Of a stretch of 64,000 bases of DNA, positions 8,983 through 54,131 are shown one piece after another. Made by a program: the position numbers and the translations under genes. Origin of the DNA: Candidatus Magasanikiibacteriota bacterium (lineage in GTDB: Bacteria; Patescibacteriota; Patescibacteriia; Magasanikbacterales; 2-02-FULL-50-9b). The notes under the pieces were generated by a model that ran no database searches, was not told the origin of the DNA, and worked only from the letters and a program-made list of their open reading frames with translations. Within the stretch, counting starts at the first letter, position 1, and each line of letters begins with the position of its first letter. The stretch lies in contig JAHFHU010000001.1 in assembly GCA_023246755.1 (NCBI GenBank), forward strand, positions 6,072-70,071, written 5' to 3'.

Positions 8983-10050
8983 TTAATTTTTGTTAAACCG
9001 CTCGGCGAGTGTGCTCACATTGTGCGCCAAATCAGCTCGACACACGAGCACATACGCATCCGTTTCAACAACGATAACATCATCGACTCCAACACACACA
9101 ATTGTTTTAGCGCCATCGCCATACACCACATTTCGATGCGCATCAATAAATTCTGCGCGTGCACGCGAAACAACATTTTCCGACGCATCCGCCGACAATA
9201 CATTTTTCAAAACCATCCACTTCCCGACATCAGACCATCCCCACCCATCGGCCAAATACGCGGAACGAACAAGCGCCTGTTTCGTCAGCAACGACTCAAT
9301 CGAAATGATCGGCAACTGTGCCGCTGCAGCACGCGCGCGTTCCTCATCGCCGCCCGCAATCATTTTTTGTATCTCACACACCTGATTCCACACCTCCGGC
9401 GCGCACGATTCAAACAGTGCGACAATCGTTTTTAATTTCCAAAAATACATACCGGTGTGTGCAAACCACGAACCCGCCGTAATCATCAGCGCACACGTTT
9501 CTGCATCAGGCTTCTCAACCCAATCCGTCAACGGACCGACGGGCTCCCCTGAAAAATCCGCGCGCACATAACTATAGCCCGGATCAATATATTCTGGCGT
9601 GACAACCGGCATCACGATGTGCTCGGGATGTGTGTCTAAAAAATTTGCAATTGCATCGATCGCTTCGCGAAATAAATCACTCCGCTCGATATAATCGTCC
9701 GCGGGAATCGAAGCGATCACTGTTTCGACATCGATGCCTGCAGCGCACAAAGACGCGACCTCAAACGCGATGCCCGGACCGGTGTTGCGTTTCAATAACT
9801 CCGCAAAAATATGTGTCGATGGAATTTCCGGAACTTGCGCACGCGTCAGATCAACATAGCGCTGATTCGTCGTAATAAAAATATTTTCATAACCAAACGC
9901 GGCGACACGGCCGACCGTTTCTTGCAGCATCGTGCGCTCGGAAAATACGGGAACAAACTGCTTTGGCAACGTACTCGTCGACAGTGGCCACAAACGTGTC
10001 CCCGTCCCACCGGCGCGAATCACTATTTTGAATTTGGAATTGGTTGCCAT
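8983..10050 (-). CDS. manC: mannose-1-phosphate guanylyltransferase / sugar nucleotidyltransferase
   Basis: 'KIVIRAGGTGTRLWPLSTSTLPKQFVPV' nucleotidyltransferase signature. Start placed at the internal ATG (MATNSKFKIV) at 10050; the Cys/Arg-rich upstream extension to 10197 looks non-coding. Confidence 0.8.
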   Translation of the reverse strand: MATNSKFKIVIRAGGTGTRLWPLSTSTLPKQFVPVFSERTMLQETVGRVAAFGYENIFITTNQRYVDLTRAQVPEIPSTHIFAELLKRNTGPGIAFEVASLCAAGIDVETVIASIPADDYIERSDLFREAIDAIANFLDTHPEHIVMPVVTPEYIDPGYSYVRADFSGEPVGPLTDWVEKPDAETCALMITAGSWFAHTGMYFWKLKTIVALFESCAPEVWNQVCEIQKMIAGGDEERARAAAAQLPIISIESLLTKQALVRSAYLADGWGWSDVGKWMVLKNVLSADASENVVSRARAEFIDAHRNVVYGDGAKTIVCVGVDDVIVVETDAYVLVCRADLAHNVSTLAERFNKN

Positions 10051-37421: not shown

Positions 37422-39389
37422 TCACCTCACTACACGAAACCCGTGTAGAAGTTCATCCGCTTTTGCTGCCTGTTCTCCTTTGTACACGAGCAACCGCGGG
37501 CGTCGTGCTGTCGTGAGCGTGGTACCGACCGGCAACAATTTCTTCAGGATGTCGAATCGATCCACCCCGGGAATTGCTTTACCCTCGATCACATGGCCAA
37601 ACAGAATTTCAAAAGGCTGACCTTGCAAAACCTGTGCAGCCGCCCATGAAATCAGCACGGATCCCGGTTCAGCTTTTTGTTCATGTCGTTGCGCGTAGTT
37701 CACATTGCAATTCAAGACATCAAGTCGCCCACCCGTTGTTTGAATCACGACGTTTCCACAATGGATACCAATGCGAACCTGAATCCCGTATTTTCCATCC
37801 GGATCAACAGCGTCATTCACGCACTTCTGAAACTCAAGTGCTGCTGAAATTGCCGTATCAACCAGATGTACTTGCACGTCGGGAACGCTCGGATCATCCT
37901 GCTCTTCGAGCGTGGTAAAAAAGTACAAGCCGCCATCGCCCATCGACTTAGGCGTTAACCCCCTGAACTTGAGGCAAAACGTTTGATCAGCAAATTCATG
38001 GAACTTACCGACCAGCGTTGCAACCTCCATGGCCGCGCTCTTTTCGACCTCAAACGGCGATAATGCGGGGTTTTCACCCCGAACTTCTTTCTGCCGCTTA
38101 AGCTCAATCTTAGTGAATGCCATGATGTCCAGAAATACGACGGCCGCGAACTGGAACCGCCGCTCAAATGGCTTTCCCGTGCCATCCGCTGAACGAAGCA
38201 TGCCCCGCAACCACCCCTCGTCCCGAAATCCATGGCCGAGAAGTTCACGGAAACGCAGTGCCATGTAACGCTCGCGTTGTGTCTCGGCTTTCGAGACCGC
38301 AACCGTCGCGCTCAACGCCACCTGACCTTCGACGCGCCGCGTCAAACGATCCCACGCCGTCTGTGCCAAAGTCACGAAGAACGTGGTGGCCGCCAAAATT
38401 AGCGCATGCACGAACTGCAAAATCGTCTTTGACACGTGGTTGTACACGACTTCCATGATAACCGTCCCCAGCTCGTTCGCATCATCGAGCTGAAAAACTG
38501 TTCCTGCATGGACAAGGGGCAACAACTCGCTTGTCCGCGTACAGACACTCGAGATTGTCTTATCGAGCCGGATCGCGTTAACCGTATGTCCGTTCGGCTT
38601 GTAGCGGATTACCGTTCCACACAACTCACCGTTCACGAACAGCCGATCTCCGGCTTGTGGATTCACAACCCACTGGTCATCCTTACTCGCTTCCGCGCCA
38701 CGCAACCAGCGTATAGACTGGTCGTTCCCGAGCCATTTTTTCAAAAAAGCCTCGAGGTTAACCGGAACCGCCTTGAGCGTGACATCGGACACCGGGTCTT
38801 GAAACTCCCAATGTGCTGGAAAAGTCGACGTGACCCCGGGAATAAAATACATGAGCGACAACGCATCATCTTGTGGGGAACGTCGAATGCCGGTCCTCGC
38901 ATCTTCCACATAATGACCGACGAGCGTGATGAGGCCCGGCACACTGCTTTGTGTCCATCGTTTTGAGTCATTCCACAAACGTGTACCCCGTGGAATCGAA
39001 CGCGCACCGAGACGCGGGTCTGTGATGTATTTGAGGCCCAACTTGAGCATCCATTCACCAAAGTCCGTTGACCCGTGCGCGACTTCGACAGCCGCTTGTC
39101 CGAGTGTGCGCAGATGTGACGGGTGCCCGAGCACGGTCACGACCGCGAACTCGATCTGGATGTACCACCCCAAGGGAACAAACCGGTCTGTTGTGAGACT
39201 CAAAGCCCGATTCTCGTCCTTTTCCTGCTCCGCTTGAAGGAGCGCCTGAAGATGTGGGGGGAGTTTCGCGATCACCTGACTGACCGTGCATGACGGAAAA
39301 TACTTGCGCATCCCCCGAACCATGACCGCCCAATTCAGGCTCAAGTTGACGTCGTGCCACGAATCATCATCTTGCAGTTCAGTTGCCAT
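37422..39389 (-). CDS. class III nucleotidyl (adenylyl/guanylyl-type) cyclase domain protein with large N-terminal domain of unknown function
   Basis: 655 aa. C-terminal CHD motifs 'FAAVVFLDIMAFTKI' (D-I-x-x-F-T), 'KSMGDGGLYFF', 'RIGIHCGNVVIQTTGG'. One predicted TM about residue 335. Strong SD 'GGAGG' before the ATG. Gene is visibly G+C-rich (roughly 58-60% by eye) versus flanks. Confidence 0.7.
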   Translation of the reverse strand: MATELQDDDSWHDVNLSLNWAVMVRGMRKYFPSCTVSQVIAKLPPHLQALLQAEQEKDENRALSLTTDRFVPLGWYIQIEFAVVTVLGHPSHLRTLGQAAVEVAHGSTDFGEWMLKLGLKYITDPRLGARSIPRGTRLWNDSKRWTQSSVPGLITLVGHYVEDARTGIRRSPQDDALSLMYFIPGVTSTFPAHWEFQDPVSDVTLKAVPVNLEAFLKKWLGNDQSIRWLRGAEASKDDQWVVNPQAGDRLFVNGELCGTVIRYKPNGHTVNAIRLDKTISSVCTRTSELLPLVHAGTVFQLDDANELGTVIMEVVYNHVSKTILQFVHALILAATTFFVTLAQTAWDRLTRRVEGQVALSATVAVSKAETQRERYMALRFRELLGHGFRDEGWLRGMLRSADGTGKPFERRFQFAAVVFLDIMAFTKIELKRQKEVRGENPALSPFEVEKSAAMEVATLVGKFHEFADQTFCLKFRGLTPKSMGDGGLYFFTTLEEQDDPSVPDVQVHLVDTAISAALEFQKCVNDAVDPDGKYGIQVRIGIHCGNVVIQTTGGRLDVLNCNVNYAQRHEQKAEPGSVLISWAAAQVLQGQPFEILFGHVIEGKAIPGVDRFDILKKLLPVGTTLTTARRPRLLVYKGEQAAKADELLHGFRVVR

Positions 39390-39530: not shown

Positions 39531-40631
39531 ATGATCCGAATTCGTCAGTCACACTGGTACACGCTCTGTTTATTTTTTTTCCTCTGTTTTCCGTTTTTAT
39601 CGGCTCATGCAGCCAACATCGGATTTGCGTCGAGCGGCGTATCTTTTGCTACAGACACTCCATTCGCAGGAATTCCCACCAAAGTCTACACCGTTGTGAT
39701 CAACAACCAATACAAAAAAATGACCGCGACGATCTCATTCATCGACAATGGCCAAGAATTTGCACGCATAACAACCGTGATTGATTTCGAGGAAGCGCAG
39801 CAAGTGAGCGCGCCGTGGACACCTACAACAGGACCTCACACAGTCGGCGCTCGTTTTATTTCCGCCGTTGCAACGGACGCGCAAGGAAATACGCGCCAAC
39901 TCAAAACAGCCGAATTAGATGCAATTGCATCGCCTGTCTCACAATCAACAACGATCGACAATGATAGCGACCACGACGGAATCGGAGATCATGAAGAAAT
40001 GGGAACCTACCACACATCGCCGCTCAAATTTGATTCTGACGATGACGGGCTGTCGGATTACGAGGAAATTTTTACGTACAAAACGGATCCTAACAACCCA
40101 AATACCGATGGTGACAGCATGAAAGATGGCGCCGAAATACACGCGGGTCGAAATCCTTTAATTTCAGATGATCCCGCACCCCCGCCTCCACCCGTCTCAG
40201 CTCCGACCGCACCATCTGCTTCTTCCAAATCATTAACGACCGTTGCGCCGACTCAAAAAAGTAGCCCGACGGCTCCATCGTCACCCGTTAAAAAAACGAA
40301 CGCGGCGCAGCCGACACTGACAACTACAGAAACTGGATCGAACACAAAAAAGGTTCAAGCAAAAAAACCAGTCGCCGCTCCAAAAATAATTTCTGCGATT
40401 GCCGACCCGCAAACCGCACCGGCCACAGATTCATCAACGACGCCTGAAACCACGACAAACACGACCACCGATTCAATAGCAGCGCCACCTCGTCAACCAC
40501 GCGCAACCCCGCCCGAAGAAAACCAAACGGGCAATTGGGTCACTGTTTTGGGCGTGCTCGCTGGATTATTTGGAGTCACCGCGGCCGTAACCGGCGGCCT
40601 CGCGTGGCGTGAAAAAAATCGATACTATTAA
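39531..40631 (+). CDS. cell-surface protein with thrombospondin-type-3-like Ca-binding repeats, Pro/Thr-rich stalk and C-terminal TM anchor
   Basis: Signal peptide 'LCLFFFLCFPFLSAHA'. Repeats 'DNDSDHDGIGDHEE', 'DSDDDGLSDYEE', 'DTDGDSMKDGAE'. Low-complexity P/T/S/A linker. C-terminal 'WVTVLGVLAGLFGVTAAVTGGLAW'. Confidence 0.65.
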   Translation: MIRIRQSHWYTLCLFFFLCFPFLSAHAANIGFASSGVSFATDTPFAGIPTKVYTVVINNQYKKMTATISFIDNGQEFARITTVIDFEEAQQVSAPWTPTTGPHTVGARFISAVATDAQGNTRQLKTAELDAIASPVSQSTTIDNDSDHDGIGDHEEMGTYHTSPLKFDSDDDGLSDYEEIFTYKTDPNNPNTDGDSMKDGAEIHAGRNPLISDDPAPPPPPVSAPTAPSASSKSLTTVAPTQKSSPTAPSSPVKKTNAAQPTLTTTETGSNTKKVQAKKPVAAPKIISAIADPQTAPATDSSTTPETTTNTTTDSIAAPPRQPRATPPEENQTGNWVTVLGVLAGLFGVTAAVTGGLAWREKNRYY

Positions 40632-41480: not shown

Positions 41481-41903
41481 ATGGCAAAAAAGATCAAAAC
41501 CATCATCAAACTACAGATTCCGGGCGGAGGAGCAACCCCAGCCCCACCTGTTGGCCCAGCCCTTGGTCAGCACGGTTTGAATATTCAAGAATTCGTAACC
41601 AAATTCAACGCAGCGACCCAAGATCGCCGTGGCGAAACTGCTCCGTGTGAAATCACGGTCTTCGAAGACCGCACCTTCACTTTTGTGCTCAAAACTCCGC
41701 CAGCAACCGATTTGATCAAAAAAGCTGCGGGTATCAAGAGCGGATCAAAGAAAGCCCCGGGCGAAAAAGTGGGTAAAATCACGTGGGCACAAGCTCGCGA
41801 CATCGCAACCCGCAAAATGCCGGACTTAAACACCGCGAATGTAGACGCAGGCGCTCGGATGATCGCCGGATCAGCTCGCCAGATGGGTGTTGACGTAATC
41901 TAA
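41481..41903 (+). CDS. rplK: 50S ribosomal protein L11
   Basis: '[31 protein letters not shown]'. Confidence 0.95.
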
Positions 41904-41918
41904 AAATTGCGCTCTCGG

Positions 41919-41946
41919 AACTCCCCCACTCGGGGGAGTTTTGTTA
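41919..41946 (+). terminator. Rho-independent terminator after rplK
   Basis: 'aactccccc-actc-gggggagtt' followed by 'ttgtt'. Confidence 0.6.
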
Positions 41947-41958
41947 TAATAGAAACCT

Positions 41959-42294
41959 ATGCAGACAAAAAATATTATTCGCAACGTTTATCTCTATCTC
42001 GTGAGTGCGATCGCGTTGTTCATGGTCGTGTTCGCGGTCGTGAGCTTAGTCAACCTGGGGCTGCGTACGTGGATTTTTCCAAAGGCTGATGATAACTACT
42101 ATTCCCAACCGAGCAAACCTGTTGCGGAAATGGCCGCACAGATTGAACAAGATCGTCAAAATGCCGAAAATAATAAATTAGCGCAGCGTCAACGCGATCT
42201 CGTACAAAATATCTCGTTTCTCATTGTCGCGGGTCCACTGTTTGCGTTTCACTGGCGCTTAATTCGAAAAGATCACCTAATAAATAACGCATAA
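41959..42294 (+). CDS. small membrane protein (2 TM), hypothetical
   Basis: Two hydrophobic helices flanking a Q/R-rich loop. Confidence 0.5.
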   Translation: MQTKNIIRNVYLYLVSAIALFMVVFAVVSLVNLGLRTWIFPKADDNYYSQPSKPVAEMAAQIEQDRQNAENNKLAQRQRDLVQNISFLIVAGPLFAFHWRLIRKDHLINNA

Positions 42295-42298
42295 TTTT

Positions 42299-42865
42299 AT
42301 GATGCTCATTATTCTCATCGCCATCGTCGCAATTCTCGCACTGTGGCTCATCGGCACCTACAACGGACTTGTCACGCTCCGCACACGATCCGAAGAAGCA
42401 TGGTCAGACATCGACGTACAATCAAAACGCCGCTACGATTTGATTCCGAATTTAGTCGAAACCGTAAAAGGATATGCGGCGCATGAATCCGGAACACTGG
42501 AAAAAGTGATCGCCGCGCGTAATGCTGCGATGCAAACACACGATTCGTCGAGTGCAAGCATGCAAGATAAATTACAAGCGGAAAACGCACTTTCCGGAAC
42601 GCTCAAAACTATTTTTGCATTGAGTGAAAGCTATCCCGATCTCAAAGCAAACCAAAATTTCATGAAACTCCAAGACGAACTTGCGGACACTGAAAATAAA
42701 ATTCAGGCTTCACGCAGATTCTACAACGGAAATGTGCGCGACCTCAACACAAAAATTCAGCACTTCCCTACAAACCTCATTGCGAATACTTTTGGTTTCA
42801 CCAAACGAGAATTTTTTGAAGTTGCAGACGCAGCGCAGCGCGAAAATGTGAGTGTAAAATTTTAA
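42299..42865 (+). CDS. LemA-family membrane protein
   Basis: 'LIGTYNGLVTLRTRSEEAWSDIDVQSKRRYDLIPNLVETVKGY'. Confidence 0.85.
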   Translation: MMLIILIAIVAILALWLIGTYNGLVTLRTRSEEAWSDIDVQSKRRYDLIPNLVETVKGYAAHESGTLEKVIAARNAAMQTHDSSSASMQDKLQAENALSGTLKTIFALSESYPDLKANQNFMKLQDELADTENKIQASRRFYNGNVRDLNTKIQHFPTNLIANTFGFTKREFFEVADAAQRENVSVKF

Positions 42866-42871
42866 TGTCCT

Positions 42872-43774
42872 GTGTATACTCAAATCGACGCAAATAAACG
42901 GCGAACAACTGTTCTCATAACCATTTTTATCGCGCTGATCGTCGCGATGGGTTATGCGTACAGTCTCTACTCGGGAATCGATCCGTTCGTTGCGATGACG
43001 GCTGCGTTGATTTTTTCAACGGTGATGGCGCTTTTTAGTTATTACACAGGCGACAAAATCGCTCTCGCGACCGCAGGCGCGCAAGAGATCACCAAAAAAA
43101 CCAACCTGTATCTTTACAACATCGTTGAAAATTTATGCATCACCGCCGGCATGAAACCAACGCCGCGTGTTTACATCATCGATGATCCGGCGATCAACGC
43201 ATTTGCGACGGGTCGCGACCCCGAACATGCATCAATCGCCGTCACCACCGGCGCATTATCAAAATTAGAAAACGAAGAACTTGAGGGGGTGCTCGCACAC
43301 GAACTCTCACACATTAAAAATTACGACATCCGTCTGATGACGATTGTGATCGTTTTGTGTGGTGCAATCATGCTCATCACACACATGCTTCAATTTGGTG
43401 GTGCGGGCCGCTCACGATCGAATGACGATGAAAAAAGCGGTCTTGGCAGCGTCCTCGCAATTCTTGGAATTGTCGTGATCATCCTCTCGCCGATCATCGC
43501 CGAACTCATCAAGCTCGCAATTTCTCGTCGTCGCGAATTTTTAGCGGATGCCTCTGGCGCGCTCCTCACCCGCTATCCCGAAGGCCTTGCACGCGCCCTT
43601 GAAAAAATTCGCGACACGAATCAACCGATGTCAAGCGCAAATCAAGCAACCGCGCATCTGTACCTCGACAATCCATTTCGTGCTGCGGGTTCAAAAATTT
43701 CAAATCTTTTTTCAACACATCCACCGCTCGACGAGCGCATCAAAGCGTTGCGCAACATGGGTCAAGCAAAATAA
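42872..43774 (+). CDS. htpX: M48-family zinc metalloprotease (HtpX-like)
   Basis: HExxH 'HELSHIKNYD', TM helices; classic LemA-M48 gene pair. Confidence 0.85.
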   Translation: MYTQIDANKRRTTVLITIFIALIVAMGYAYSLYSGIDPFVAMTAALIFSTVMALFSYYTGDKIALATAGAQEITKKTNLYLYNIVENLCITAGMKPTPRVYIIDDPAINAFATGRDPEHASIAVTTGALSKLENEELEGVLAHELSHIKNYDIRLMTIVIVLCGAIMLITHMLQFGGAGRSRSNDDEKSGLGSVLAILGIVVIILSPIIAELIKLAISRRREFLADASGALLTRYPEGLARALEKIRDTNQPMSSANQATAHLYLDNPFRAAGSKISNLFSTHPPLDERIKALRNMGQAK

Positions 43775-43851
43775 AAACGCCGAGACCTTGCCTGCGCGTT
43801 GAAACGCAAGCAAAGCCTCGACGATGACGTTCGCCTCAATCTCACTCTGAG

Positions 43852-44049
43852 TTACGTCGTCAAACGAGCGCTGACAAATCCGATCAGAAAGCCGCAGACG
43901 ATGATCACCGCCCACCACCACGATGGCAGTTCTTTTTCAGAATCAATCGAACCCGTTTGACGCATCACCTCCTTCAGTCCAGCAGCGTTGTATGGCCCAA
44001 CCAAAGGCGGTTCACCATATTTTGAGGCATCTCCTTTCTTGCGCGACAT
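43852..44049 (-). CDS. questionable small C-terminally anchored membrane ORF
   Basis: 65 aa from MSRKKGDAS...; the longer annotated ORF overlaps the thrS 3' end. Confidence 0.2.
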   Translation of the reverse strand: MSRKKGDASKYGEPPLVGPYNAAGLKEVMRQTGSIDSEKELPSWWWAVIIVCGFLIGFVSARLTT

Positions 44050-44125
44050 TAAATCCTCCAATCTCCATAGCAAAGTAGGCCATGAAGGGAGAAAAATTGT
44101 ACTATTTTTTGAAATTCTCGTCAAC

Positions 44126-45934
44126 TTACATCGAACGTTCTCGCGAAATCTCCAAAAGCCACGCCTCACATTCTTCGGCGCGCATCACCTTCATTTCTTT
44201 GCTCCCGCGCGCACGAATTTGCCACGGCTCACCACTCATTTCTTTGTCGCCAAAAACAACCGAGAGCGGAATCTTTTCCGTTTCCGCACGACGAACTTTC
44301 GCACCAATCGTTGCAGCGTCGGCGTCAACTTCAACGCGCAAACCCGCAGCGCGCAACTGACGCGCGACTGCAAACGCGGCGTCTGCGTGCTTATCCGCAA
44401 CCGCAAGCAGCCGCACCTGCACCGGCGCAAGCCACACCGGAAACACACCCGCATAATGTTCGATAATCACACTCATAAACCGCTCAATTGAACCCATGAT
44501 CGCGCAATGGATCATCATAATCGGCTCTTTCTCGCCCGCTTCATTCACGCACGTCAACCCAAAATTGCGCGGTTGATTAAAATCCAGCTGAATTGTCGCA
44601 ACCTGCCACACACGACCGATCGAGTCTTTGGCCATAAAATCAATTTTCGGCCCGTAAAACGCCGCCTCACCAACGCCATCGATCCATTCAACTTTTTTAT
44701 CTTCCAAAATTTCGCGCAGCGCGGTTTCGGCTTTGTCCCAATCTTCGGGCGCACCCAAATATTTTTCCGCAGCCGATGGATCACGGCGCGACAAACGTGG
44801 TTTTAACTCGAAACCGAACGCCTGATAAAATTTTTGAATAATCTCCCACACAATTTCAGCCTCGCCCCGAACTTGCGACACGCGACAAAAAACGTGCGCA
44901 TCATCTTGCGTGATCGACAACACACGCGACAAACCGGACAACTCACCCGATTGCTCGTCGCGATACACCATCGTTGTTTCGGCAAAACGCACCGGCAATT
45001 CGCGATACGACCGCTGCTCGCTCGCATAAATTTGCGTGTGATGCGGACAGTTCATCGGCTTCATCGCAAACAAATGATCCTCGCGCGTTGTAATCTTAAA
45101 AAGATCCTGCGCATATTTTGCCCAATGCCCCGACGTTTCGTATAAATCTTTTTTTGTGATGTGCGGAATCGTCACACGCTCATAACCATGCGGCCGACGC
45201 AAACTCCACACAAAATCGTTGAGCAACTCGCGCATCACCGTCCCCTTCGGTGTCCAGAGTGGCAACCCGGGCCCCACCAAATCCGAAAATACAAACAAAC
45301 CGAGCTCACGCCCGAGTTTGCGGTGGTCGCGCTTTTCCGCCTCCTCTTGTTGGCGCACAAATTCTTCGAGCTCCGCGGCGCTCGCAAACGCCAACCCATA
45401 CACGCGGGTCAGCTGATCATTCTCCGCCTTCCCGCGCCAATATGCGCCCGCGAGTTTCGTCAATTTGAACGCGCCGATCTCTTTGGTCGACGCAACATGC
45501 GGCCCGCGACACAGATCAACAAAATCTCCGGTTTCATAAATGCTCGCGATCATCGGCGCGGCCGGATCAAAATCCTGCAACTCCTCATCTTTCAAATTCG
45601 TCGTGCCGCGCGATTTCAAATCGGAGAGCAATTCAACTTTATAGCCCTGCCCCCGACCACGAAAAAATTCAATCGCCTCGTCAATCGGCATCTCGCGGCG
45701 CGTAAACGCACTGCCGCGACCAACAATCTCACGCATCTTCGCCTCAACGAGCACCAAATCATCCGGCCCAAGCGGCGTCACCGTTTTCATGTCGTAATAA
45801 AAACCGTTCTCAATCACCGGTCCAACACCAAATTGCGTTCCCGGAAACAACTCAGCAACAGCCGCTGCCAAAACATGCGCGGTCGAGTGGCGCATCGCAT
45901 CAATCGGTTCAAAATCTTGTGGGAGTTTAGCCAT
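44126..45934 (-). CDS. thrS: threonyl-tRNA synthetase
   Basis: Start MAKLPQDF; 'RHSTAHVLAAAV' (editing/second additional domain), class II motifs, anticodon-binding C-terminus. Confidence 0.95.
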   Translation of the reverse strand: MAKLPQDFEPIDAMRHSTAHVLAAAVAELFPGTQFGVGPVIENGFYYDMKTVTPLGPDDLVLVEAKMREIVGRGSAFTRREMPIDEAIEFFRGRGQGYKVELLSDLKSRGTTNLKDEELQDFDPAAPMIASIYETGDFVDLCRGPHVASTKEIGAFKLTKLAGAYWRGKAENDQLTRVYGLAFASAAELEEFVRQQEEAEKRDHRKLGRELGLFVFSDLVGPGLPLWTPKGTVMRELLNDFVWSLRRPHGYERVTIPHITKKDLYETSGHWAKYAQDLFKITTREDHLFAMKPMNCPHHTQIYASEQRSYRELPVRFAETTMVYRDEQSGELSGLSRVLSITQDDAHVFCRVSQVRGEAEIVWEIIQKFYQAFGFELKPRLSRRDPSAAEKYLGAPEDWDKAETALREILEDKKVEWIDGVGEAAFYGPKIDFMAKDSIGRVWQVATIQLDFNQPRNFGLTCVNEAGEKEPIMMIHCAIMGSIERFMSVIIEHYAGVFPVWLAPVQVRLLAVADKHADAAFAVARQLRAAGLRVEVDADAATIGAKVRRAETEKIPLSVVFGDKEMSGEPWQIRARGSKEMKVMRAEECEAWLLEISRERSM

Positions 45935-45999
45935 ACAAAAACGCAAATAGCGTGAGGTTAAGTCACGCTATTGTACGAGTTTTTTATGTCTGCTGTCAA

Positions 46000-48900
46000 T
46001 TACGAACCGACCTCATCTTTTTTCTTGAGTTCAGCAACGTCCTCGTTCACACGATCAACTACATTTTGGCGATCTGCGTCATTAGGCAACTTTAACGCGC
46101 GGACCTCTGTTCGAGCGGCCACGTCCGGAGAAAGCCCTTCAAGAAGTTTTTTTATTCGACGCTCAACGCCAATCTGCGTTCTGTCGCGAGCACCCTTCAT
46201 GATATCTGATTTAAGAAAGGCATCATCATAGGCTACGTGAAGTAATTTTCCATCCTTTTTCGGCATTGCTTGAATATGAGACGCTAACCTACCAATTAAA
46301 TTCGCTTTACCGATGGTAAATCCGTCAAACGCCGCTTCTGAAGAGGTGAGATTAAACCGCACACTGCTCGGATTATCTTGCCATCGCCCGATCGATTCCT
46401 CTGGTTTTTCAGTCGCCGATATTTCAGCCGCGACATCTGTCACAGGAGCAACAGGCGCCGCCTTTGGACCTAATTCGATTACCGCCGCGCTGATGTCATC
46501 TGGTTTGCTTCGGAAGGATTTTTCTTTGCTCCGTGCCGCGGCCTCCTCAACAAGTGCTCGAGCCGGATCAGCGCTATTATCGATAACCGTTTCAATAATC
46601 TCAAAATCAGTTAAATTGTCGCCAACGCCATCGGTCATGAGCAAGAGACGGGAAACACCCGCAGGTAATTCGATAATTCGGATATTTGGCGCAAAATTAT
46701 TACCCGAACGCCCACTCTTACCACTTCCAATACCCAAATAACTCCCAATCACATTACGTACGCCCCATGCATCTTCCACCTCCTCAGAAAGGAGATCGCC
46801 CGAAGATGACGCGGTTCGCATACGCTGTTCAATCGCCCACTTCGCTGAAATTTCACTTGCAGGTGTTGTGCGAGTAATCAAATCTGACGTGAGTGGTGTT
46901 AATCTGTTTTTGTCATCGAGCACATACACGCGCGAGTCACCGACAGCCGCAACTGCTGCATACGCCTTATTATTCTCCATAAACGGAATTGCGATCGCCG
47001 CCGTTGTTCCGCCCTGTGGTAAGCCCGCATTTCTCAAATTATCAACAACTTCAGCCTGAACATCAGCGAACGCCTGATCAAGCGCAGCAGAAAGCTCCTT
47101 GGCTGACCCGCCGCGCGCAACAACATCGCGCAGACCGGCTGCTCGTTTCTGAAATGCCTCTGCTGCAAATGTCGACGCCTCTTTACCACCGGCGTACCCA
47201 CCCATACCATCAAACATGCCATAAACTTCATTCGCGCGATCAATGAACTGACTATCTTCGTTCTTACCCTTTCCTTTTGTCGAATCAGTATGTTCAAATA
47301 CTTGGCGCACCAAAATTTCACCCTCACCCGGCCCTCTCGTTTCAACCAAATCCGGAACAATTGGTTTAATTTCAGGCTTTAATTTTGTTTGTGCGTCCGG
47401 CGCAGCGCGCTCCGCAGCAAGTGCCGCCTCTCTCGCCGACACTGCCGCACGACGCTGACGTGCAATCTCTCCTTCACCCGGAACGCGGTACATCGATTCG
47501 CGCAATTCGTTGGTTATCGCATCAACATTCGTACCCCCAACAATAACGCGATACATCACCCGTTCGCCGGTTTCCCGCGCAACGTGTTGGATCAGTTTTT
47601 CAATATTTTTTGTGAAAAACGCTACCGCATCGTCGGTTGTTTTGATTTCTGCGCGACCCTCAACTTTTTTGCCAATCATTCTCTGAACATAACTCTCATC
47701 AAGCACATACACAACTGGCTCTTGCGTTCCTGTCTGGGTTCCTGCAGCTAATCGTGCAACTTCCATCTGCTTAAATTGATTTCCATCAAATTCACCAACG
47801 CCAACTAACTGTTGACGAACAGGTAGCGCTTCAATCCGTTCTCCACGAAGTGCTAGCACTTGATACTCTTTTTCCGGCGGTGCATCGGGTGGAGTCACCA
47901 CAACGCCGTTGCGCAAACTTTTTTCAGATACGAATTTAACAGCAACTCCATACGCCGCAAACTTTTTCGTGAATTCTGGGCCGAACACTTGAGCCACCAG
48001 CTGTTCCGTTGTCTGATGTTTTGCAAGTGACGCAGCGCTCACCGCAATCATTAACAGTTCCGGACGTGGCTTTGCAACCGCAAGACGTTGTTCAAATTCA
48101 TCAATCGAGTGAACGCCGCCATGAACACCCTCAAAAGAAAAGCCGCCATCTTGTGCACCCTGCCCAGATTCTGCGATATTGAAAACAAATCCGTCACCCC
48201 ATTTGAGCGGCTCACGAATTTCTCGAGCGCGCGCTTCCGTCAATTTTTCACGAATTATCTCCGGATCATTGGACGACAGTGGATTATCTTTGTTGCTTGC
48301 CACATACGAATCAACTGCCCCATCCATCCATTTTTTGAACTGCGCGTCTTCCACATATTGACGCCCTGTCTGCTCATGTTTCCCACTCAAAACCGTATCA
48401 AAATCAGCGCTTTCAACTAATTTACGGCTCAACTCCTCTTGCGCCTTAAACATTTCTGGCGTTAAGGGGCCACGAGGCGTGCGCTCACCTTTTTGTTTGC
48501 TCTGTTCATCAAGTTTTGGAACTTCCATCGGATCACGCGGCGTCCACGGAATCGGAAAAATAAACGGAATGTCATCACTACCACTCGTTGGAGCTGACGG
48601 AATCGTCGCCGGGGTCTCTTGCCAATCATAAAAGTCTTGCGTCACATCCTTATTCGAGTGCATCAAACGGAACAAACTCGATCTGTGCGCGACAACGCCC
48701 GCGCCGTCGCCATGACGTGTAGCGGTAGCGAGTGTGTGATAGCCCGCGCCGTCGTCAGACGGAATAACTGCTTCAACCGTTGCTTTCAAATCTCCGTGAT
48801 CATCAAACAACACGTTGTACAGCTCGTCACCCGGCTTGATATTGAGCACGCCATCCGGGCCAACCGGCAACTCAAAACTTTCGCCCGAATGCCAATAATT

Positions 48901-51900
48901 TTGACCGACGAACACACGCAACCGAAATTTCGATGCGGCCTCCGCAAACGCTTTGCTCTCAACTTTGTTACTAATGTCACCAAATTTATTATCGATCGAG
49001 CCGTCAGAATTCACTTTGCCCCCAATTGCATTTTTGATCATTTCCTTGATCGACAATGTTCGCGCGCTCGACGTGCCATCGAGTTTCAACTGCAATTCTT
49101 TGCCGTCAGCACCGACCCAACGCCCACCAACATGCTCAACCTTAAAATGTGGATCAGCTTCGTATTGATGGAGATATTTTGGATCAGGCCACGAATCAAC
49201 TTTAAACGAGTGCGGCCCCAGCGTATTTGGACCCTTTGGCATCGGAAGATCACCGGTTTTGTCCGTCACCACCCAATGTGCACCAACTTTGTGCATCGGA
49301 GTTCCGTTGCTGTGCCAATCGAGGCGATGTGCTTTCGATTGACCCATGTGTTCGCGCAAAAACTTCGTGAGCCCATCTCTCGTGTACGACGTCTTATCGA
49401 TGTGGACTTCCTCACGCAACATCCAACCGTGCTGTCGCAACAATGCTGCAGAAGCTGGCAACAATTTTCCATCCGGACCGACTTGAATTCCGCCTTCAAT
49501 CAACCTACCTGTTTTATCGGTAATATCAAATGTTCCGTCAACGTTTGGCTTAATATCCATGTTGTCCGGAATCTCAAAATTATTGGTCACCGCATGATTT
49601 CCAAACTCAACAGGTCGCAAAGTCCCTGAAAATTGATGCCCGGGGACATTTTGGGTTACATGTTCGATGTGACCGCCCCACTCGCTCATCGCATCTGCTT
49701 CTAATACTTTTCCATCCGGAGTCATGTGAAAAAGCGGGCTCACCGGCTTGCCAAAAAGCGTACAAATCCGCCCGCCACCATGTCCGTCAGAAACAAAGAT
49801 TCGGTCGCTTGGCAATCGAAGTATCCCTTTTTCAAACGGAACTTCATGAACACCACGCGGCGCATCCATAAACGAAAACAGTCCACCATGAACAGCAGCA
49901 GGTGCCGCCGGTGGCATCTCTGGCCCACCAAAATTAAATCCGAGCAACCGTTTTGTTGCGGACCATGTGTTACTTGCCCCGTTCAGAACGTAATTACCCG
50001 CAGCTTCTAACTGGTCATGAAACACATGACGCGCTCCCCACATCAACGCACCTGATGCCAAACCAATACTGCCCCCAATAAGTGCCTTGCGATTACTATT
50101 TTTGCTTAAATATTCAGCAAATGCGGTATCGCGCGCCGCAATATCATCAAGAATTTTTTGTTTTTCCGCATCAACTCGGCCCGCAAGCGATGGGTCTTTC
50201 ATCAAATTTGATTCACGGCCCAGTCGCTGAAACTGTCGTTTAATATCATCGATCGCATTCGCGAGCGATAAATCGCGCTCACCCTCTTCGGCGCTCACAT
50301 TAATCGTATCTTTTGCATGCTGCAAACGAACTTCGAGACGCGCATGTGTTTCCGCGATGAGCGTGAGTGCTGCCGCGCGCGCTTCTGGATTTGTTTCTTG
50401 ACCTGTGATCGCACGCAACTGTTCCAAAATTGTATCCGCATTTTTCATCTCTTGAACAAACTCGGACATTTTCTCCGCACGCGGACCACCCGGCGTTCGA
50501 CCAAGTGCGCGATCTCGCGCGACCATGCCACGATCTTGTTTCAACTCTTTGCTTGCACGAATTTTCGCAAACAACCCCGCAGCCAACGTTCCACCAACCA
50601 AACCCGCCGCAATTACCGCTGCAGGACCGCTCAAAACACCCGCACCCGCGATACCCATTGCCGCTGCACCCGTTGCTGCCCATCGAACGCCCGCGCGCGC
50701 TGCGATCGCACCAACAATACCCATCGTCACCGGATTTGCAACGACCGCACCGAGCACTTTGTTAACCGCCGTCGAACCCGTCATGTTTTGCAACCACGAA
50801 ACCGCGCGCTCGCCTCGGCTCATTTTTCCGGCTGGATCGCGCTCAACAACATCGCGCCCCCGTTTTGATAATTCAATATTCAAATCCAACTTGAGCATGC
50901 CTTTCACATAGCGCTTGATCGACTCCGGATCTTTCTCGCCATATTTTTCCTGCGCGGCCGTGATCATGTGGCTTACCTGCTCTTTATACGTCTCGGCCCA
51001 ATGAAACAAATTTGACGCATGCATTCGATTCTCTCGCTCGCTTGCCGTCGACCGACCGCCTTGCGCAAATTTTTTACCACCCATGAGCGGAATGATCTCT
51101 TCTTCAACACGTTTTTCAAATGCCGTTCGATCGCCGATGCCGCCGGTCGCATATTCAACAAACAACGCGCTCGCCGCATTGTTCAACGTTTCATCCGCGA
51201 CAAATTGATCGCCACGTTCTTCTTCATCATGAAGGTCGTCAGCAAAATGTCGGAGCACATCGTCAAATTGTGCGAGTGTCTCACGCGTGTGCGGGTCCGT
51301 CGACTCAACAGCACCACGACCAAACACGCGCGCTTCGAGCGACGCTTTCAAATTACGATTCGATTCAATCGCGTGGAGTGCATCGAGATAAAATTTCCGG
51401 CGATACGCATCTTCATTAATATGCGCAAACGCTTTTGAAAAAATTGCACCAACGCCTTTTCGATTCATGTACGCGCGCAACTTATTTTCCGCAACTAATT
51501 CCGCGAGCTGCTCGATCCACGCCGACAAATCAACGATACGAATATCCATTTTTTGCGGTTTGTTTTCGTAAATGCCCCCATGCATTTTCAATAAGTGCCG
51601 CAAACGCATCGTGCGCTCTTCTTCGGGCGTGATCGTATCCGCTTTATAACGCGAAGCTGGTTCGTTAACCCGAGGCGTTTCATCAATCGGCTGTGTGTTC
51701 ACCATGATCGGTTCAGGGCTGTTTTCGTTGGATGTGTTTTGTTGGACAGCTGCTGCTGCGGCTTCGGCAGCAGCCGCTTCCTGAGCTGCCTGCCGCGCGG
51801 CGAATGTTGCTAGTAAATCCGCGCGCGCCTGATCAGTATCTTTTTGGTCATTACCAGCTAATGGTTGCTCAGCTCGATCAGTCTTTTTAATTTTCTTCGG

Positions 51901-52317
51901 TTCGACAACTGGTTGTGGGTATCCATCCGGTCGCTTAATAAGATTGTGTTTCGGCTTCCGTGCACATCGTGTGAATGCGTCGAGATCAAGCTCTTTCGAC
52001 GCGAAAAAATCGACCCCGTTTGGAGCGGCTGTCGCGACAAGAATTTTTGGTTTTCCCCCGTCATCCGTTACACCAACGATACGCACGCCCTGATGCCACG
52101 ATCTATTTGAATAGAGATCGATCGCATCAAACAAGTTGAACGACATTTTTGCAAGAATTTCTTTGCCAGAATCCGTTACCTTCCCCTCAAGTTCACGCAT
52201 TTTATCCGCCGAAAATTTTGGAACAGGCATGAGATCGAGCGGCTTTCGATCTTGGTTTACAGGATCTGGTCGTTCTTGTGTTTTTGGTCTTCGATCTCCG
52301 TTTTTTGGTTCTCGCAT
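46000..52317 (-). CDS. giant (2105 aa) membrane-anchored multidomain protein with C-terminal PP2C-type Ser/Thr phosphatase domain
   Basis: Uninterrupted 6.3-kb ORF. About 4 TM helices (residues ~545-640 Gly/Ala-rich and ~765-785). C-terminal PPM motifs 'YGMFDGMGGYAGG', 'AAVGDSRVYVL', 'LLLMTDGVGDNL'. The remaining ~1700 aa have no recognisable domains. Confidence 0.8.
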   Translation of the reverse strand: MREPKNGDRRPKTQERPDPVNQDRKPLDLMPVPKFSADKMRELEGKVTDSGKEILAKMSFNLFDAIDLYSNRSWHQGVRIVGVTDDGGKPKILVATAAPNGVDFFASKELDLDAFTRCARKPKHNLIKRPDGYPQPVVEPKKIKKTDRAEQPLAGNDQKDTDQARADLLATFAARQAAQEAAAAEAAAAAVQQNTSNENSPEPIMVNTQPIDETPRVNEPASRYKADTITPEEERTMRLRHLLKMHGGIYENKPQKMDIRIVDLSAWIEQLAELVAENKLRAYMNRKGVGAIFSKAFAHINEDAYRRKFYLDALHAIESNRNLKASLEARVFGRGAVESTDPHTRETLAQFDDVLRHFADDLHDEEERGDQFVADETLNNAASALFVEYATGGIGDRTAFEKRVEEEIIPLMGGKKFAQGGRSTASERENRMHASNLFHWAETYKEQVSHMITAAQEKYGEKDPESIKRYVKGMLKLDLNIELSKRGRDVVERDPAGKMSRGERAVSWLQNMTGSTAVNKVLGAVVANPVTMGIVGAIAARAGVRWAATGAAAMGIAGAGVLSGPAAVIAAGLVGGTLAAGLFAKIRASKELKQDRGMVARDRALGRTPGGPRAEKMSEFVQEMKNADTILEQLRAITGQETNPEARAAALTLIAETHARLEVRLQHAKDTINVSAEEGERDLSLANAIDDIKRQFQRLGRESNLMKDPSLAGRVDAEKQKILDDIAARDTAFAEYLSKNSNRKALIGGSIGLASGALMWGARHVFHDQLEAAGNYVLNGASNTWSATKRLLGFNFGGPEMPPAAPAAVHGGLFSFMDAPRGVHEVPFEKGILRLPSDRIFVSDGHGGGRICTLFGKPVSPLFHMTPDGKVLEADAMSEWGGHIEHVTQNVPGHQFSGTLRPVEFGNHAVTNNFEIPDNMDIKPNVDGTFDITDKTGRLIEGGIQVGPDGKLLPASAALLRQHGWMLREEVHIDKTSYTRDGLTKFLREHMGQSKAHRLDWHSNGTPMHKVGAHWVVTDKTGDLPMPKGPNTLGPHSFKVDSWPDPKYLHQYEADPHFKVEHVGGRWVGADGKELQLKLDGTSSARTLSIKEMIKNAIGGKVNSDGSIDNKFGDISNKVESKAFAEAASKFRLRVFVGQNYWHSGESFELPVGPDGVLNIKPGDELYNVLFDDHGDLKATVEAVIPSDDGAGYHTLATATRHGDGAGVVAHRSSLFRLMHSNKDVTQDFYDWQETPATIPSAPTSGSDDIPFIFPIPWTPRDPMEVPKLDEQSKQKGERTPRGPLTPEMFKAQEELSRKLVESADFDTVLSGKHEQTGRQYVEDAQFKKWMDGAVDSYVASNKDNPLSSNDPEIIREKLTEARAREIREPLKWGDGFVFNIAESGQGAQDGGFSFEGVHGGVHSIDEFEQRLAVAKPRPELLMIAVSAASLAKHQTTEQLVAQVFGPEFTKKFAAYGVAVKFVSEKSLRNGVVVTPPDAPPEKEYQVLALRGERIEALPVRQQLVGVGEFDGNQFKQMEVARLAAGTQTGTQEPVVYVLDESYVQRMIGKKVEGRAEIKTTDDAVAFFTKNIEKLIQHVARETGERVMYRVIVGGTNVDAITNELRESMYRVPGEGEIARQRRAAVSAREAALAAERAAPDAQTKLKPEIKPIVPDLVETRGPGEGEILVRQVFEHTDSTKGKGKNEDSQFIDRANEVYGMFDGMGGYAGGKEASTFAAEAFQKRAAGLRDVVARGGSAKELSAALDQAFADVQAEVVDNLRNAGLPQGGTTAAIAIPFMENNKAYAAVAAVGDSRVYVLDDKNRLTPLTSDLITRTTPASEISAKWAIEQRMRTASSSGDLLSEEVEDAWGVRNVIGSYLGIGSGKSGRSGNNFAPNIRIIELPAGVSRLLLMTDGVGDNLTDFEIIETVIDNSADPARALVEEAAARSKEKSFRSKPDDISAAVIELGPKAAPVAPVTDVAAEISATEKPEESIGRWQDNPSSVRFNLTSSEAAFDGFTIGKANLIGRLASHIQAMPKKDGKLLHVAYDDAFLKSDIMKGARDRTQIGVERRIKKLLEGLSPDVAARTEVRALKLPNDADRQNVVDRVNEDVAELKKKDEVGS

Positions 52318-52323
52318 AAAAAA

Positions 52324-52671
52324 TTAGTTGCTCGCGGCAGCGACAAACGTATCTTTAAAATTCAACATGGTTTGTGAAACAATCTCGACATTTCCCGGAA
52401 CGGCTAATTTCAAAAATCCGATGATTCGATCAGATGATGGGTTGGTTTCCATCATTTTTTCAAATTCATCGAACTTCTGCTGGTCGAGTTTGTCGAGCAA
52501 ATCAAGGATAATCTGTTGTTGTAAACGTGCCGCAAGTTCGCTCATCATCGTCGTGCGAAGCTCCGGGTTCTGGGGTGCGATTCCCGCGTCCTCAAGCATA
52601 CGACTCAAAAAATGTTCGACTTCGGGCGGAATGATAATTGCATCTGGATGCGTTGTTAAAGGTGCTGTCAT
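52324..52671 (-). CDS. hypothetical 115-aa protein, likely co-transcribed with giant gene
   Basis: Start at MTAPLTTHP; stop lies 6 nt before the giant ORF start; extended -10 'tgtatactat' upstream on minus strand. Confidence 0.45.
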   Translation of the reverse strand: MTAPLTTHPDAIIIPPEVEHFLSRMLEDAGIAPQNPELRTTMMSELAARLQQQIILDLLDKLDQQKFDEFEKMMETNPSSDRIIGFLKLAVPGNVEIVSQTMLNFKDTFVAAASN

Positions 52672-52827
52672 ACAAAATAAAAATTTGTATATAGTATACA
52701 GTTTTTGACATAATTTTGCTCTGTGCATAACTTGACACGCTCGAACGCCCATGCTAAACTGCCGACATTAAATTCTCGTGGGAAATCGTGGGTCACACGG
52801 TTGCTTGTACCACACAAAAATCATTAT

Positions 52828-53514
52828 ATGGCCACCAAAGGCAAGACCTATCAGGCGTCAGCAAGTTTAGTCGACACAAAAAAAGTTTATTCCGTCGACG
52901 AGGCGCTCGAACTCATGGAAAAATTTCCAAAGCGCGCGTTTGACGAGACCGTCGAACTGCACATGCATCTCGGGATCGATCCAAAAAAAGGTGACCAGCA
53001 GGTGCGAACGACGCTCGTGCTCGCACATTCAGTCGGTAAGCCAAAGCGTATCATCGCATTTGTAACTGAAGGCGAAATGGCTGCCGCAAAAGAAGCGGGT
53101 GCAGATATCGTTGGTGGTGAAGATCTTGTTGAAGAAATTGTGAAGAGTGGAAAACTTGATTTTGATATCGCTGTCGCAACACCATCGATGATGCCGAAGC
53201 TTGCAAAACTTGCAAAGACTTTGGGCCCAAAAGGTTTGATGCCAAACCCAAAAACGGACACGGTTTCCGCGAACGTTACAAAAATGATCGGCGAACTTCG
53301 TCGCGGTAAGGTTGCGTTTAAAAATGATGACACGGCAAACGTGCACATCCCCGTCGGCAAACGTTCGCTTTCTGTTGAGCAGCTCAAAGAAAATATGGCG
53401 CTTGCAATCGAAGCGGTCAAACGCGCAAAACCAACGAGTTCAAAGGGTGTCTTCATCAAAAGCGCATTCATCGCAAGTACGATGAGCCCTGGAATCAAAA
53501 TTTCAATCGCATAA
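52828..53514 (+). CDS. rplA: 50S ribosomal protein L1
   Basis: Start MATKGKTYQA; 'AFVTEGEMAAAKEAGADIVGGEDL', 'LGPKGLMPNPKTDTV'. Confidence 0.95.
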   Translation: MATKGKTYQASASLVDTKKVYSVDEALELMEKFPKRAFDETVELHMHLGIDPKKGDQQVRTTLVLAHSVGKPKRIIAFVTEGEMAAAKEAGADIVGGEDLVEEIVKSGKLDFDIAVATPSMMPKLAKLAKTLGPKGLMPNPKTDTVSANVTKMIGELRRGKVAFKNDDTANVHIPVGKRSLSVEQLKENMALAIEAVKRAKPTSSKGVFIKSAFIASTMSPGIKISIA

Positions 53515-53663: not shown

Positions 53664-54131
53664 ATGACCGAACCAACACAACGCCCCTCGTGGGATCAGT
53701 ATTTCATGGACATCGCGCAGATGGTTGCGAAACGAAGTAATTGCTGTACACGACAAGTTGCCGCCGTCATCGTCAAAGACAAGCGGATCATTTCGACGGG
53801 CTACAACGGCACACCGCGCGGGACAAAAAATTGCGACGAGGGTGGATGCGCACGCTGTTGGGCGCGCGCACACGGAACGGTCGCGGCGGGAACGCAGCTC
53901 GATGAATGCACCTGTTCGCATGGAGAAGAAAACGCGATTGTACAGGCTTCATTCCACGGCGTCGCAATCAGCGGCGGCACGTTGTACACCACATTCAGCC
54001 CCTGCCTCATGTGCGCAAAAATGTGCATCAACGCGGGAATCGCGGAAATTGTTTTTGCCGCGGAATATCCGATGAACGAAACTGCGCAAAATTTGATTCA
54101 GCAAGCAGGACTCACCCTTCGAAAGCTATGA
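53664..54131 (+). CDS. dCMP deaminase (ComEB/cytidine-deoxycytidylate deaminase family)
   Basis: 'CSHGEENAIVQA' (H/CAE Zn motif) and 'SPCLMCAKMC' (PCxxC). Confidence 0.85.
   Translation: MTEPTQRPSWDQYFMDIAQMVAKRSNCCTRQVAAVIVKDKRIISTGYNGTPRGTKNCDEGGCARCWARAHGTVAAGTQLDECTCSHGEENAIVQASFHGVAISGGTLYTTFSPCLMCAKMCINAGIAEIVFAAEYPMNETAQNLIQQAGLTLRKL

Follow-up and report, generated by a model that had tools for sequence, protein, structure and literature searches.

A family of large, putatively membrane-anchored Patescibacteria proteins with swappable C-terminal enzyme heads and a conserved DUF5663 partner

We analyzed a 64,000-nucleotide stretch of DNA (the window) from a Candidatus Magasanikiibacteriota bacterium (contig JAHFHU010000001.1), in which one gene on the minus strand (46000..52317) encodes a giant protein of 2105 aa and is preceded by a small gene (52324..52671, minus strand) encoding an acidic, DUF5663-like partner of 115 aa. 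The giant was found to belong to an undescribed family of big Candidate Phyla Radiation (CPR)/Patescibacteria proteins, predicted to be membrane anchored, that join a conserved core to a swappable C-terminal enzyme head: a PP2C phosphatase, a kinase, a GT2 or GT9 glycosyltransferase domain, or nothing at all. What is new is the core, detected only in CPR genomes, the obligate DUF5663 partner, and a possible link to orphan type IV secretion system (T4SS) genes; the phosphatase is what sets the protein apart least. The first-pass annotation of this DNA had pointed to an uninterrupted open reading frame (ORF) with a 115-aa ORF 6 nt upstream, and both were borne out: the giant ORF runs for 2105 codons plus a stop codon with no internal stop, and the small ORF is a genuine partner gene conserved in relatives.

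The giant is not one of a kind. Word-indexed homolog searches recovered about 11 close clusters, and two further profiles gave 9 and 4 proteins. An exhaustive HMMER search with a profile of aa 236-1430 against 1.84 billion representatives identified 271 representative clusters at E ≤ 1e-3 and 143 at E ≤ 1e-10. Nearly all of the 271 representatives are 1,200-2,300 aa long, and most of them have the stretch equivalent to aa ~255-775 (domain A, a hairpin, and a stalk, see below) in common, with a subset also containing domain B. Members with a taxonomic name belong to Candidatus Magasanikbacteria, Buchananbacteria, and Moranbacteria, and, judged by the members that could be identified, the family was detected only in Patescibacteria.

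The enzyme head varies even among the close homologs, which share 37-56% identity. Core and PP2C occur together in P0002 (2191 aa, 55% identity, found on 11 contigs from several sequencing runs), P0008 (1946 aa, with a same-length ORF at the same locus in L010, a contig from a Rifle metagenome-assembled genome), P0010 (1866 aa), and P0012 (1589 aa). Six of the ten closest homologs, all at the same locus between rplA and thrS, are 1327-1424 aa long, end right after the position equivalent to aa ~1480, lack PP2C, and have thrS directly after them, showing that PP2C and the linker domain D in front of it form an optional module. PP2C was probably ancestral in the Magasanikbacteria-like clade and lost once, because the more divergent P0008, P0010, and P0012 all carry it. 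Farther out, scanning 28 remote members with Pfam revealed PP2C in one (P0012), a Ser/Thr kinase in one (P0017, aa 1825-2006), GT2 in three, and GT9 in one. The family had been pictured as giant proteins ending in a phosphatase, a description that does not hold when the domain is missing from six of the ten closest same-locus homologs and replaced in remote relatives; PP2C is an optional accessory C-terminal module and does not define the family. NCBI labels one relative "PP2C family protein-serine/threonine phosphatase" and gives a member of the P0034 cluster the name "glycosyltransferase." The annotation "PP2C phosphatase" covers just 13% of the protein and does not name a conserved function, and it is corrected here.

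The extreme C-termini were also compared. A net charge of at least +3 in the last 25 aa was found in 74 of 135 family members (55%) versus 24 of 196 neighboring genes (12%), counts that are not independent events because the members are related to one another. Examples from the short Magasanikbacteria forms are the tails PKPRGKGKK and PKKRAPKKN. Cationic tails recur in the family although the C-terminal domains of its members are not homologous to each other.

The PP2C domain of the giant occupies aa 1678-1950 (46468..47286; all parts of the giant are on the minus strand). It scored 35.7 bits with Pfam PP2C_2 (PF13672; cut-off 24) and 29.8 bits with PP2C (PF00481; cut-off 20.3). The motif set is complete, with NED at 1686-88, DGMGG at 1703-07, GDSR at 1793-96, TDGVGDN at 1895-1901, and DDIS at 1940-43, and NED and DGMGG could be aligned residue by residue to tPphA, suggesting that the domain is catalytically complete. 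Its closest PDB relatives are tPphA (2j82), PstP, and Stp1. The NCBIfam equivalog for Stp1/IreP (NF033484) reached 61.1 bits against a cut-off of 230 and matched with only its N-terminal half, so the domain is not an equivalog. An assignment to the SpoIIE type fails as well, with no Pfam SpoIIE match in the query (two relatives gave weak ones, E 0.019) and one internal hairpin instead of an N-terminal polytopic domain. The phosphatase is thus real; however, it does not lie at the extreme C-terminus as first described, since a 155-aa tail follows (aa 1951-2105, 46003..46467) that contains no known domain, is shared partly with P0002 only, and has a net charge of -2 in its last 25 aa. Like the bacterial PPM/PP2C phosphatases tPphA, PstP (1txo/2cm1), and Stp1/IreP, aa 1678-1950 pass the Pfam cut-offs and keep the metal-binding motifs. 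Unlike them, the domain is a small part of its protein, is optional among orthologs, and sits between ~1,680 aa of unknown fold and the tail.

The pairing of giant and partner is our most robust result. A profile hidden Markov model built from four partners found a partner homolog directly upstream on the same strand in all 20 loci (11 close and 9 remote) for which upstream DNA was available. These include the close loci L001-L008, L010, L012, and L020 plus the contig-end fragment L011, and the remote loci L014, L015, L016, L017, L018, L019, L021, and L022, where E-values ranged from 1e-16 to 1e-49. One extra ORF, of 591 aa and without any match found, lies between partner and giant in L017. 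The query partner has a pI of 4.5, and pI values were 4.4-5.0 in 11 of 12 partners and 5.7 in the remaining one (L015). The partner is better conserved among the close loci (60-86% identity) than the giant. Pfam DUF5663 (PF18908) scored 20.3 bits on the query partner, below its cut-off of 23.7; however, it scored 26.2 bits, above the cut-off, on the L008 ortholog (60% identical to the query partner) and on the remote L014 partner, and the query partner is a DUF5663 member because it is homologous to these two. We found no mention of DUF5663 in the literature, and the domain gains its first functional context here, even if the T4SS link described below fails. At L021 (16106-20440), the kinase-bearing member is followed by a second DUF5663 paralog, a 62-aa ORF, and then a 1267-aa protein whose hydrophobic segments are spaced as in the family and whose sequence weakly resembles the N-terminal regions of P0039, P0077, and P0084. 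The arrangement is probably a second pair in tandem that has diverged.

The family core corresponds to aa ~236-1265 of the query, about 1000 aa, and is made up of domain A, the Gly/Ala hairpin, a helical stalk that contains a K-x-DRG motif, the Gly-zipper, and the beta-rich domain B. Domain A (aa 236-515, 50773..51612) is predicted to be alpha/beta and contains the motifs AENK, EARVFGRG, and NRMHASNL-HWAE as invariant alignment columns. It is common to most of the 271 representatives (profile positions ~20-280), and searches of Pfam, the PDB, and fold libraries returned no match to it. A HEPN-like Rx4H motif in "RENRMH" was considered and rejected, since its His is not conserved in remote relatives. 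The moderately hydrophobic, Gly/Ala-rich helical hairpin (aa 516-588, 50554..50772), with putative transmembrane (TM) helices TM1 at 518-541 and TM2 at ~549-586, leads into a stalk of long helices (aa 589-745, 50083..50553) that opens with an invariant K-E-L-K-Q-D-R-G-M motif; as a regular expression, K/R...[QY]DRG[ML], this motif was found in 32 family members. The weakly hydrophobic Gly-zipper segment ALIGGSIGLASGALMWGA (aa 746-768, 50014..50082) precedes domain B (aa 823-1235, 48613..49851), which carries the motifs LDWH-N-TP, GADGKELxLKL, NxDGSxD, and GYHTLATAxRHGDG.

The remaining parts are less widely shared. Region C (aa 1246-1480, 47878..48582) begins with a PF-x-P-x-W-x-PR motif, continues with a helical and alpha/beta part, and is where the short forms end. 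The alpha/beta linker domain D (aa 1498-1675, 47293..47826) is present only in PP2C-bearing forms, is homologous to aa 1154-1320 of P0012, and has no Pfam match. At the other end, aa 1-235 (51613..52317) make up a variable, partly low-complexity region of 102-365 aa among the homologs. It includes a small domain of ~70 aa, present in one copy in the query (aa ~35-110) and in two copies in P0002 and P0008. In L007, an extra 218-aa ORF (9341-9997) between partner and giant carries another copy of this domain and may have arisen by a gene split or by duplication of the module.

Over 80% of the polypeptide had been described as lacking a recognizable domain, and this was confirmed, with no relative emerging from Pfam, NCBIfam, PHROGs, PDB profiles, or fold searches. 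In the middle region in particular, Pfam (E ≤ 1), NCBIfam, PHROGs, and a PDB search with a sequence profile built from 10 homologs yielded nothing beyond PP2C. However, these ~1000 aa are not featureless. An alignment of the ten closest homologs places the best-conserved stretch of the protein at aa ~236-1480, with dozens of invariant residues. Self-comparison by BLAST, suggested as a check for tandem repeats, found no internal repeats in the giant.

An AlphaFold2 (AF2) model of aa 236-1270 from 40 family members reached a pLDDT of 77.5 and a pTM of 0.54, with domain A predicted as alpha/beta (pLDDT 85-92), the hairpin as helical at low confidence, the stalk as long helices (86-97), and domain B as beta-rich (76-91). 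A model from 8 sequences (pLDDT 50) is the sole, low-confidence one for region C and was not used for fold searches. Foldseek with the core model returned nothing from the PDB at E ≤ 0.001, and the BFVD viral structures gave nothing significant. Homology of the middle regions to known enzyme families, which would have made this an ordinary multidomain protein, was seen in neither the profile nor the fold searches. As modeled, the core is without a recognizable sequence or fold relative in the libraries searched, and even if the T4SS link fails, the family defines a ~1000-aa core of this kind. Among the weakest Foldseek matches were alpha-helical pore-forming toxins of the ClyA/XaxAB type and phage tape-measure proteins, in which long helical bundles flank a hydrophobic hairpin.

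Hydropathy analysis located the Gly/Ala-rich cluster at aa 518-586, where Kyte-Doolittle values reach 1.97 in the query, and the weaker Gly-zipper at aa 746-768, and across 148 family members hydrophobic segments were confined to these positions. In 97 aligned members, TM1 had a median length of 23 aa and a Kyte-Doolittle mean of 0.77, and TM2 had a median length of 34 aa and a mean of 1.29. Both flanks of the hairpin are rich in K/R, with a family-wide count of 6.1 in the 18 aa after the cluster. Neither a signal peptide nor a second return span was detected, and no TM segment separates domain B from the enzyme heads. The most economical topology would be an N-in/C-in two-helix hairpin with the rest of the giant in the cytoplasm, because the flanks are K/R-rich, no TM segment precedes the heads, and the heads in relatives are normally cytoplasmic enzymes. 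The first-pass annotation had proposed about four TM helices. The hydrophobic Gly/Ala-rich cluster exists; however, it looks more like two helices (at most three), to which the weak Gly-zipper is added. A TM helix between domain B and PP2C, hinted at by hydropathy in P0012, was rejected because the segment contains Glu and corresponds in the alignment to region D, which is soluble.

The genomic company of the pair depends on the lineage. In the Magasanikbacteria-like clade, the pair always lies between rplA and thrS. The placement near rplK and rplA is a lineage-specific synteny and gives no clue to function, with the remote relatives found elsewhere, usually beside T4SS-like genes. Such neighbors were present in five of the six remote loci with enough flanking DNA (L013, L016, L017, L018, and L022). 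In L013 and L017, an N-terminally anchored ATPase of 830-841 aa follows on the same strand, one or two small genes farther downstream, and it matches TrwB_AAD_bind, T4SS-DNA_transf, and TraG-D_C, identifying it as a VirD4-type coupling protein (T4CP). In L016, L018, and L022, an SBP_bac_1 (solute-binding protein) gene is followed by two to five small secreted paralogs matching T4SS_pilin (PF18895) and TrbC, an array that lies downstream of the pair in two of these loci and upstream of it, in divergent orientation, in the third. The giants at these T4SS-neighbor loci are 27-52% identical (32% between L013 and L017), and this low identity, together with the rearranged gene order, indicates that the T4SS-like linkage has survived deep divergence and rearrangement. 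The SBP_bac_1-headed VirB2-like arrays themselves span 8601-12740 in L016, 7563-9941 in L018, and 5657-9402 in L022, a combination not mentioned in the accessible part of a 2025 survey of Patescibacteria (PMC12102498).

That survey counted 5,713 VirD4-like T4CPs in Patescibacteria, only 148 of them near virB4, with no role known; it also described VirB2-like pilin arrays, with no known substrate or role (PMC12102498). Our remote family members resemble this MPF-FATA-like repertoire in that orphan-type T4CPs and pilin arrays adjoin them; unlike it, neither the giant nor its partner is matched by any Pfam profile of a T4SS component, and the accessible part of the survey does not describe such a protein (PMC12102498). 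Specifically, Pfam profiles of VirB6/TrbL, TraG_N, VirB8, VirB4, and T4CP were unmatched in the giant, 10 close homologs, and 28 remote relatives, and there was no structural match.

CPR/Patescibacteria, which are epibionts, account for a large part of bacterial diversity, and little is known about their action on their hosts. The reading we favor, tentatively and at a little under an even chance, is that the giant serves as a membrane-anchored platform with a swappable enzyme head, working with the DUF5663 partner and, by inference, with T4SS-like machinery. The likelihood of this reading and of each one below was judged separately, and the judgments are not meant to sum to unity. The two genes would form a module of a small acidic DUF5663 protein and a large membrane-anchored protein. 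The moderately hydrophobic hairpin would anchor the giant N-in/C-in, with domains A, B, and PP2C facing the cytoplasm; the partner may bind the conserved core as a chaperone or adaptor; and PP2C may strip phosphate from pSer/pThr proteins at the membrane. The family may work with a CPR T4SS-like apparatus, as an accessory platform or as cargo, a coupling suggested by the remote pairs that are operon-like with orphan VirD4-type ATPases or lie beside an SBP gene and VirB2-like arrays. The pair would then have moved to the rplA-thrS locus in the Magasanikbacteria clade. If the T4SS link is true, the family is a concrete candidate for what the orphan VirD4 and VirB2-like systems handle.

Several observations weigh against this platform reading. 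The 64-kb window contains no T4CP or pilin homolog, making the T4SS link indirect for the query, and the 11 close loci have no T4SS-like genes within the ~10 kb of available flank. The link comes from gene neighborhood at six remote loci, of which five are positive. Domain A has no catalytic-looking residues conserved family-wide, so the role of the core stays inferred. The topology was derived from hydropathy and charge heuristics, and a Gly-zipper that did span the membrane would put domain B and PP2C outside the cell.

Alternatively, the giant may be an ordinary self-signaling enzyme: a membrane-tethered PPM phosphatase functionally like SpoIIE, RsbU, or PstP that opposes the cell's own Hanks-type kinases, its large N-terminal region acting as a sensor or scaffold and the remote T4SS-like neighbors being incidental synteny in small genomes. 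We regard this as possible, although clearly on the improbable side. The PP2C domain is of the bacterial type, with its motifs all in place, a Ser/Thr kinase of opposing activity sits at the same position in a relative, every fused head is normally a cytoplasmic enzyme, the gene is single copy and vertically inherited among housekeeping genes, and the NCBI annotation of a relative says no more than PP2C phosphatase. SpoIIE has a C-terminal PP2C domain and about 10 N-terminal TM helices, and PstP has the reverse domain order; the giant is like both in joining PP2C to a membrane anchor via a large non-catalytic region. Unlike theirs, its predicted anchor is an internal two-helix hairpin after a 515-aa soluble part, and its non-catalytic core is shared with proteins carrying other enzymes or none. 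Moreover, PP2C is dispensable: the six close orthologs without it retain both the core and the partner, which means that phosphatase signaling cannot be the conserved function of the family. Incidental synteny also fits poorly with T4CP or pilin-array adjacency in five of six remote loci despite the low identity and rearranged order.

A translocated effector is a further reading, which we consider unlikely. Here, the giant would be the cargo of the CPR T4SS-like machine, with the core directing delivery, the two-TM hairpin inserting into a host membrane, and the variable enzyme head acting on the host bacterium, while the DUF5663 protein would serve as a secretion chaperone in the way VirE1 does for VirE2. 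Variable heads on a conserved N-terminal module, a small acidic partner encoded immediately upstream, T4CP genes in the same gene string, and the excess of cationic tails all point in this direction. According to a review, most T4SS transmembrane effectors show moderate hydrophobicity and a simple N-in/C-in topology with two TM segments, a pattern that the hairpin fits (PMC12981334). Resemblance to VirE1/VirE2 and to these effectors thus extends to the small acidic upstream gene, the conserved N-terminal part, the varied C-terminal enzyme, the hairpin, and the often cationic tails; the differences are the lack of any sequence or fold similarity, a vertically inherited housekeeping locus, and a query tail that is not cationic, at net charge -2. 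The absence of T4SS genes from the window, the stable synteny with ribosomal genes, and a core that is better conserved than the head, unusually for an effector, argue the same way, and the tail statistic is drawn from related members. No immunity-like or head-specific gene lies downstream, as thrS begins ~65 nt on in both long and short forms. For the same reason, the family differs from polymorphic toxin systems, where heads vary likewise but a cognate immunity gene would be expected.

A stronger version would take DUF5663 and the ~1000-aa core as an unrecognized delivery module of a Patescibacteria T4SS-like system, being the partner or cargo of the thousands of orphan VirD4 ATPases: the hairpin protein, bound to its chaperone, would pass to the machine, enter the membrane of the host bacterium, and reprogram the host through its interchangeable head; we hold this to be doubtful. 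That the family constitutes a categorically new secretion-associated module appears to us similarly improbable.

Much less probable still is a surface protein in which the Gly-zipper forms a true third span and everything from domain B onward is extracellular, as an adhesin or host-contact structure. The charge distribution has something to recommend it, with a family-wide count of 4.9 K/R in the 18 aa before the Gly-zipper and a charge-poor stretch after it, and domain B is beta-rich, rich in Gly, Trp, and His, and equipped with a Ca-binding-like NxDGSxD loop. According to the survey, no adhesin of the PrgB type has been found in Patescibacteria (PMC12102498). On the other hand, this topology would put PP2C, kinase, and GT heads outside, away from ATP, nucleotide-sugars, and phosphoprotein substrates, and there is neither a signal peptide nor a second return span. 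The Gly-zipper is probably not a full membrane span, since it is weakly hydrophobic (Kyte-Doolittle mean of about 1.0-1.1), passes the TM threshold in 62 of 148 members, and has about one acidic residue on average.

An artifact, whether an assembly chimera, a two-gene read-through, or a decaying pseudogene, is extremely improbable: only the unusual length and the optional nature of the C-terminal part hint at it, and against it stand the lack of any stop or frame break, an identical giant both in NCBI (on an 82-kb contig) and in an independent ENA assembly, the same fusion in at least four other independently assembled lineages (P0002, P0008, P0010, and P0012) at 37-56% identity, GC content and GC skew continuous with the adjoining genes, and many invariant columns along the whole core.

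The window gene order is nusG, rplK (41481-41903, plus strand), a DUF5671 gene, lemA, htpX (plus strand), thrS, the giant, and the partner (all minus strand), and rplA, whose ATG lies at 52828 on the plus strand; beyond rplA come the dCMP deaminase gene and, farther on, thyX, tmk, and gatB. The pair had been said to occupy the space between rplK and rplA, and its position is right, except that the DUF5671 gene, lemA, htpX, and thrS share the gap. Usually, rplK and rplA are adjacent genes. In the window (41481-53514), ~11 kb part them, and this layout is kept in the close-clade loci that reach that far, with a Band_7 gene added in some. The DUF5671 neighbor and the DUF5663 partner both fit a Patescibacteria genome.

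The partner ORF at its longest spans 52324..52752, and the conserved 115-aa form begins at the ATG at 52671; its stop is separated from the ATG of the giant by 6 nt (TAA-TTTTTT-ATG). The partner gene and rplA diverge from an intergenic region (52672..52827) that is presumed to hold a promoter. It contains a TGTATACT motif ~20 nt before the partner ATG, the candidate for the extended -10 promoter of the first-pass annotation, which lacks both a spacer base and a -35 element and was not listed by a consensus promoter scan. Directly 3' of the stop codon of the giant (45946-45999, minus strand) is a near-consensus sigma-70-like promoter (TTGACA, 18-nt spacer, TACAAT; 11/12 matches), followed by a 10-bp hairpin immediately 5' of the thrS start, suggesting that thrS may own a promoter or leader and not be cotranscribed with the giant.

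Other genes of the neighborhood also showed distinct features. The slot beside rplA holds the dCMP deaminase gene in the window (53664-54131) and in most relatives, and a dCTP-deaminase/dUTPase-like (DCD) gene in L002 (8078-8701) and L012 (3396-3965), apparently a non-orthologous displacement that concerns the supply of dUMP upstream of thyX-tmk. A 655-aa ORF at 37422-39389 (minus strand) has a "FLDIMAFT" stretch in its C-terminal part, which we take to resemble class III nucleotidyl cyclases. The gene at 39531-40631 (plus strand) encodes a 366-aa protein that combines a signal-like N-terminus with Asp-rich thrombospondin-type-3-like repeats (DSDHDGIGDHEE, DSDDDGLSDYEE), a long linker of Pro, Thr, and Ala, and a TM anchor at the C-terminus. 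In L005 and L006, Pfam TSP3_bac matches a gene of similar size (332-336 aa) just past secE, on the opposite relative strand to the 366-aa gene of the window.

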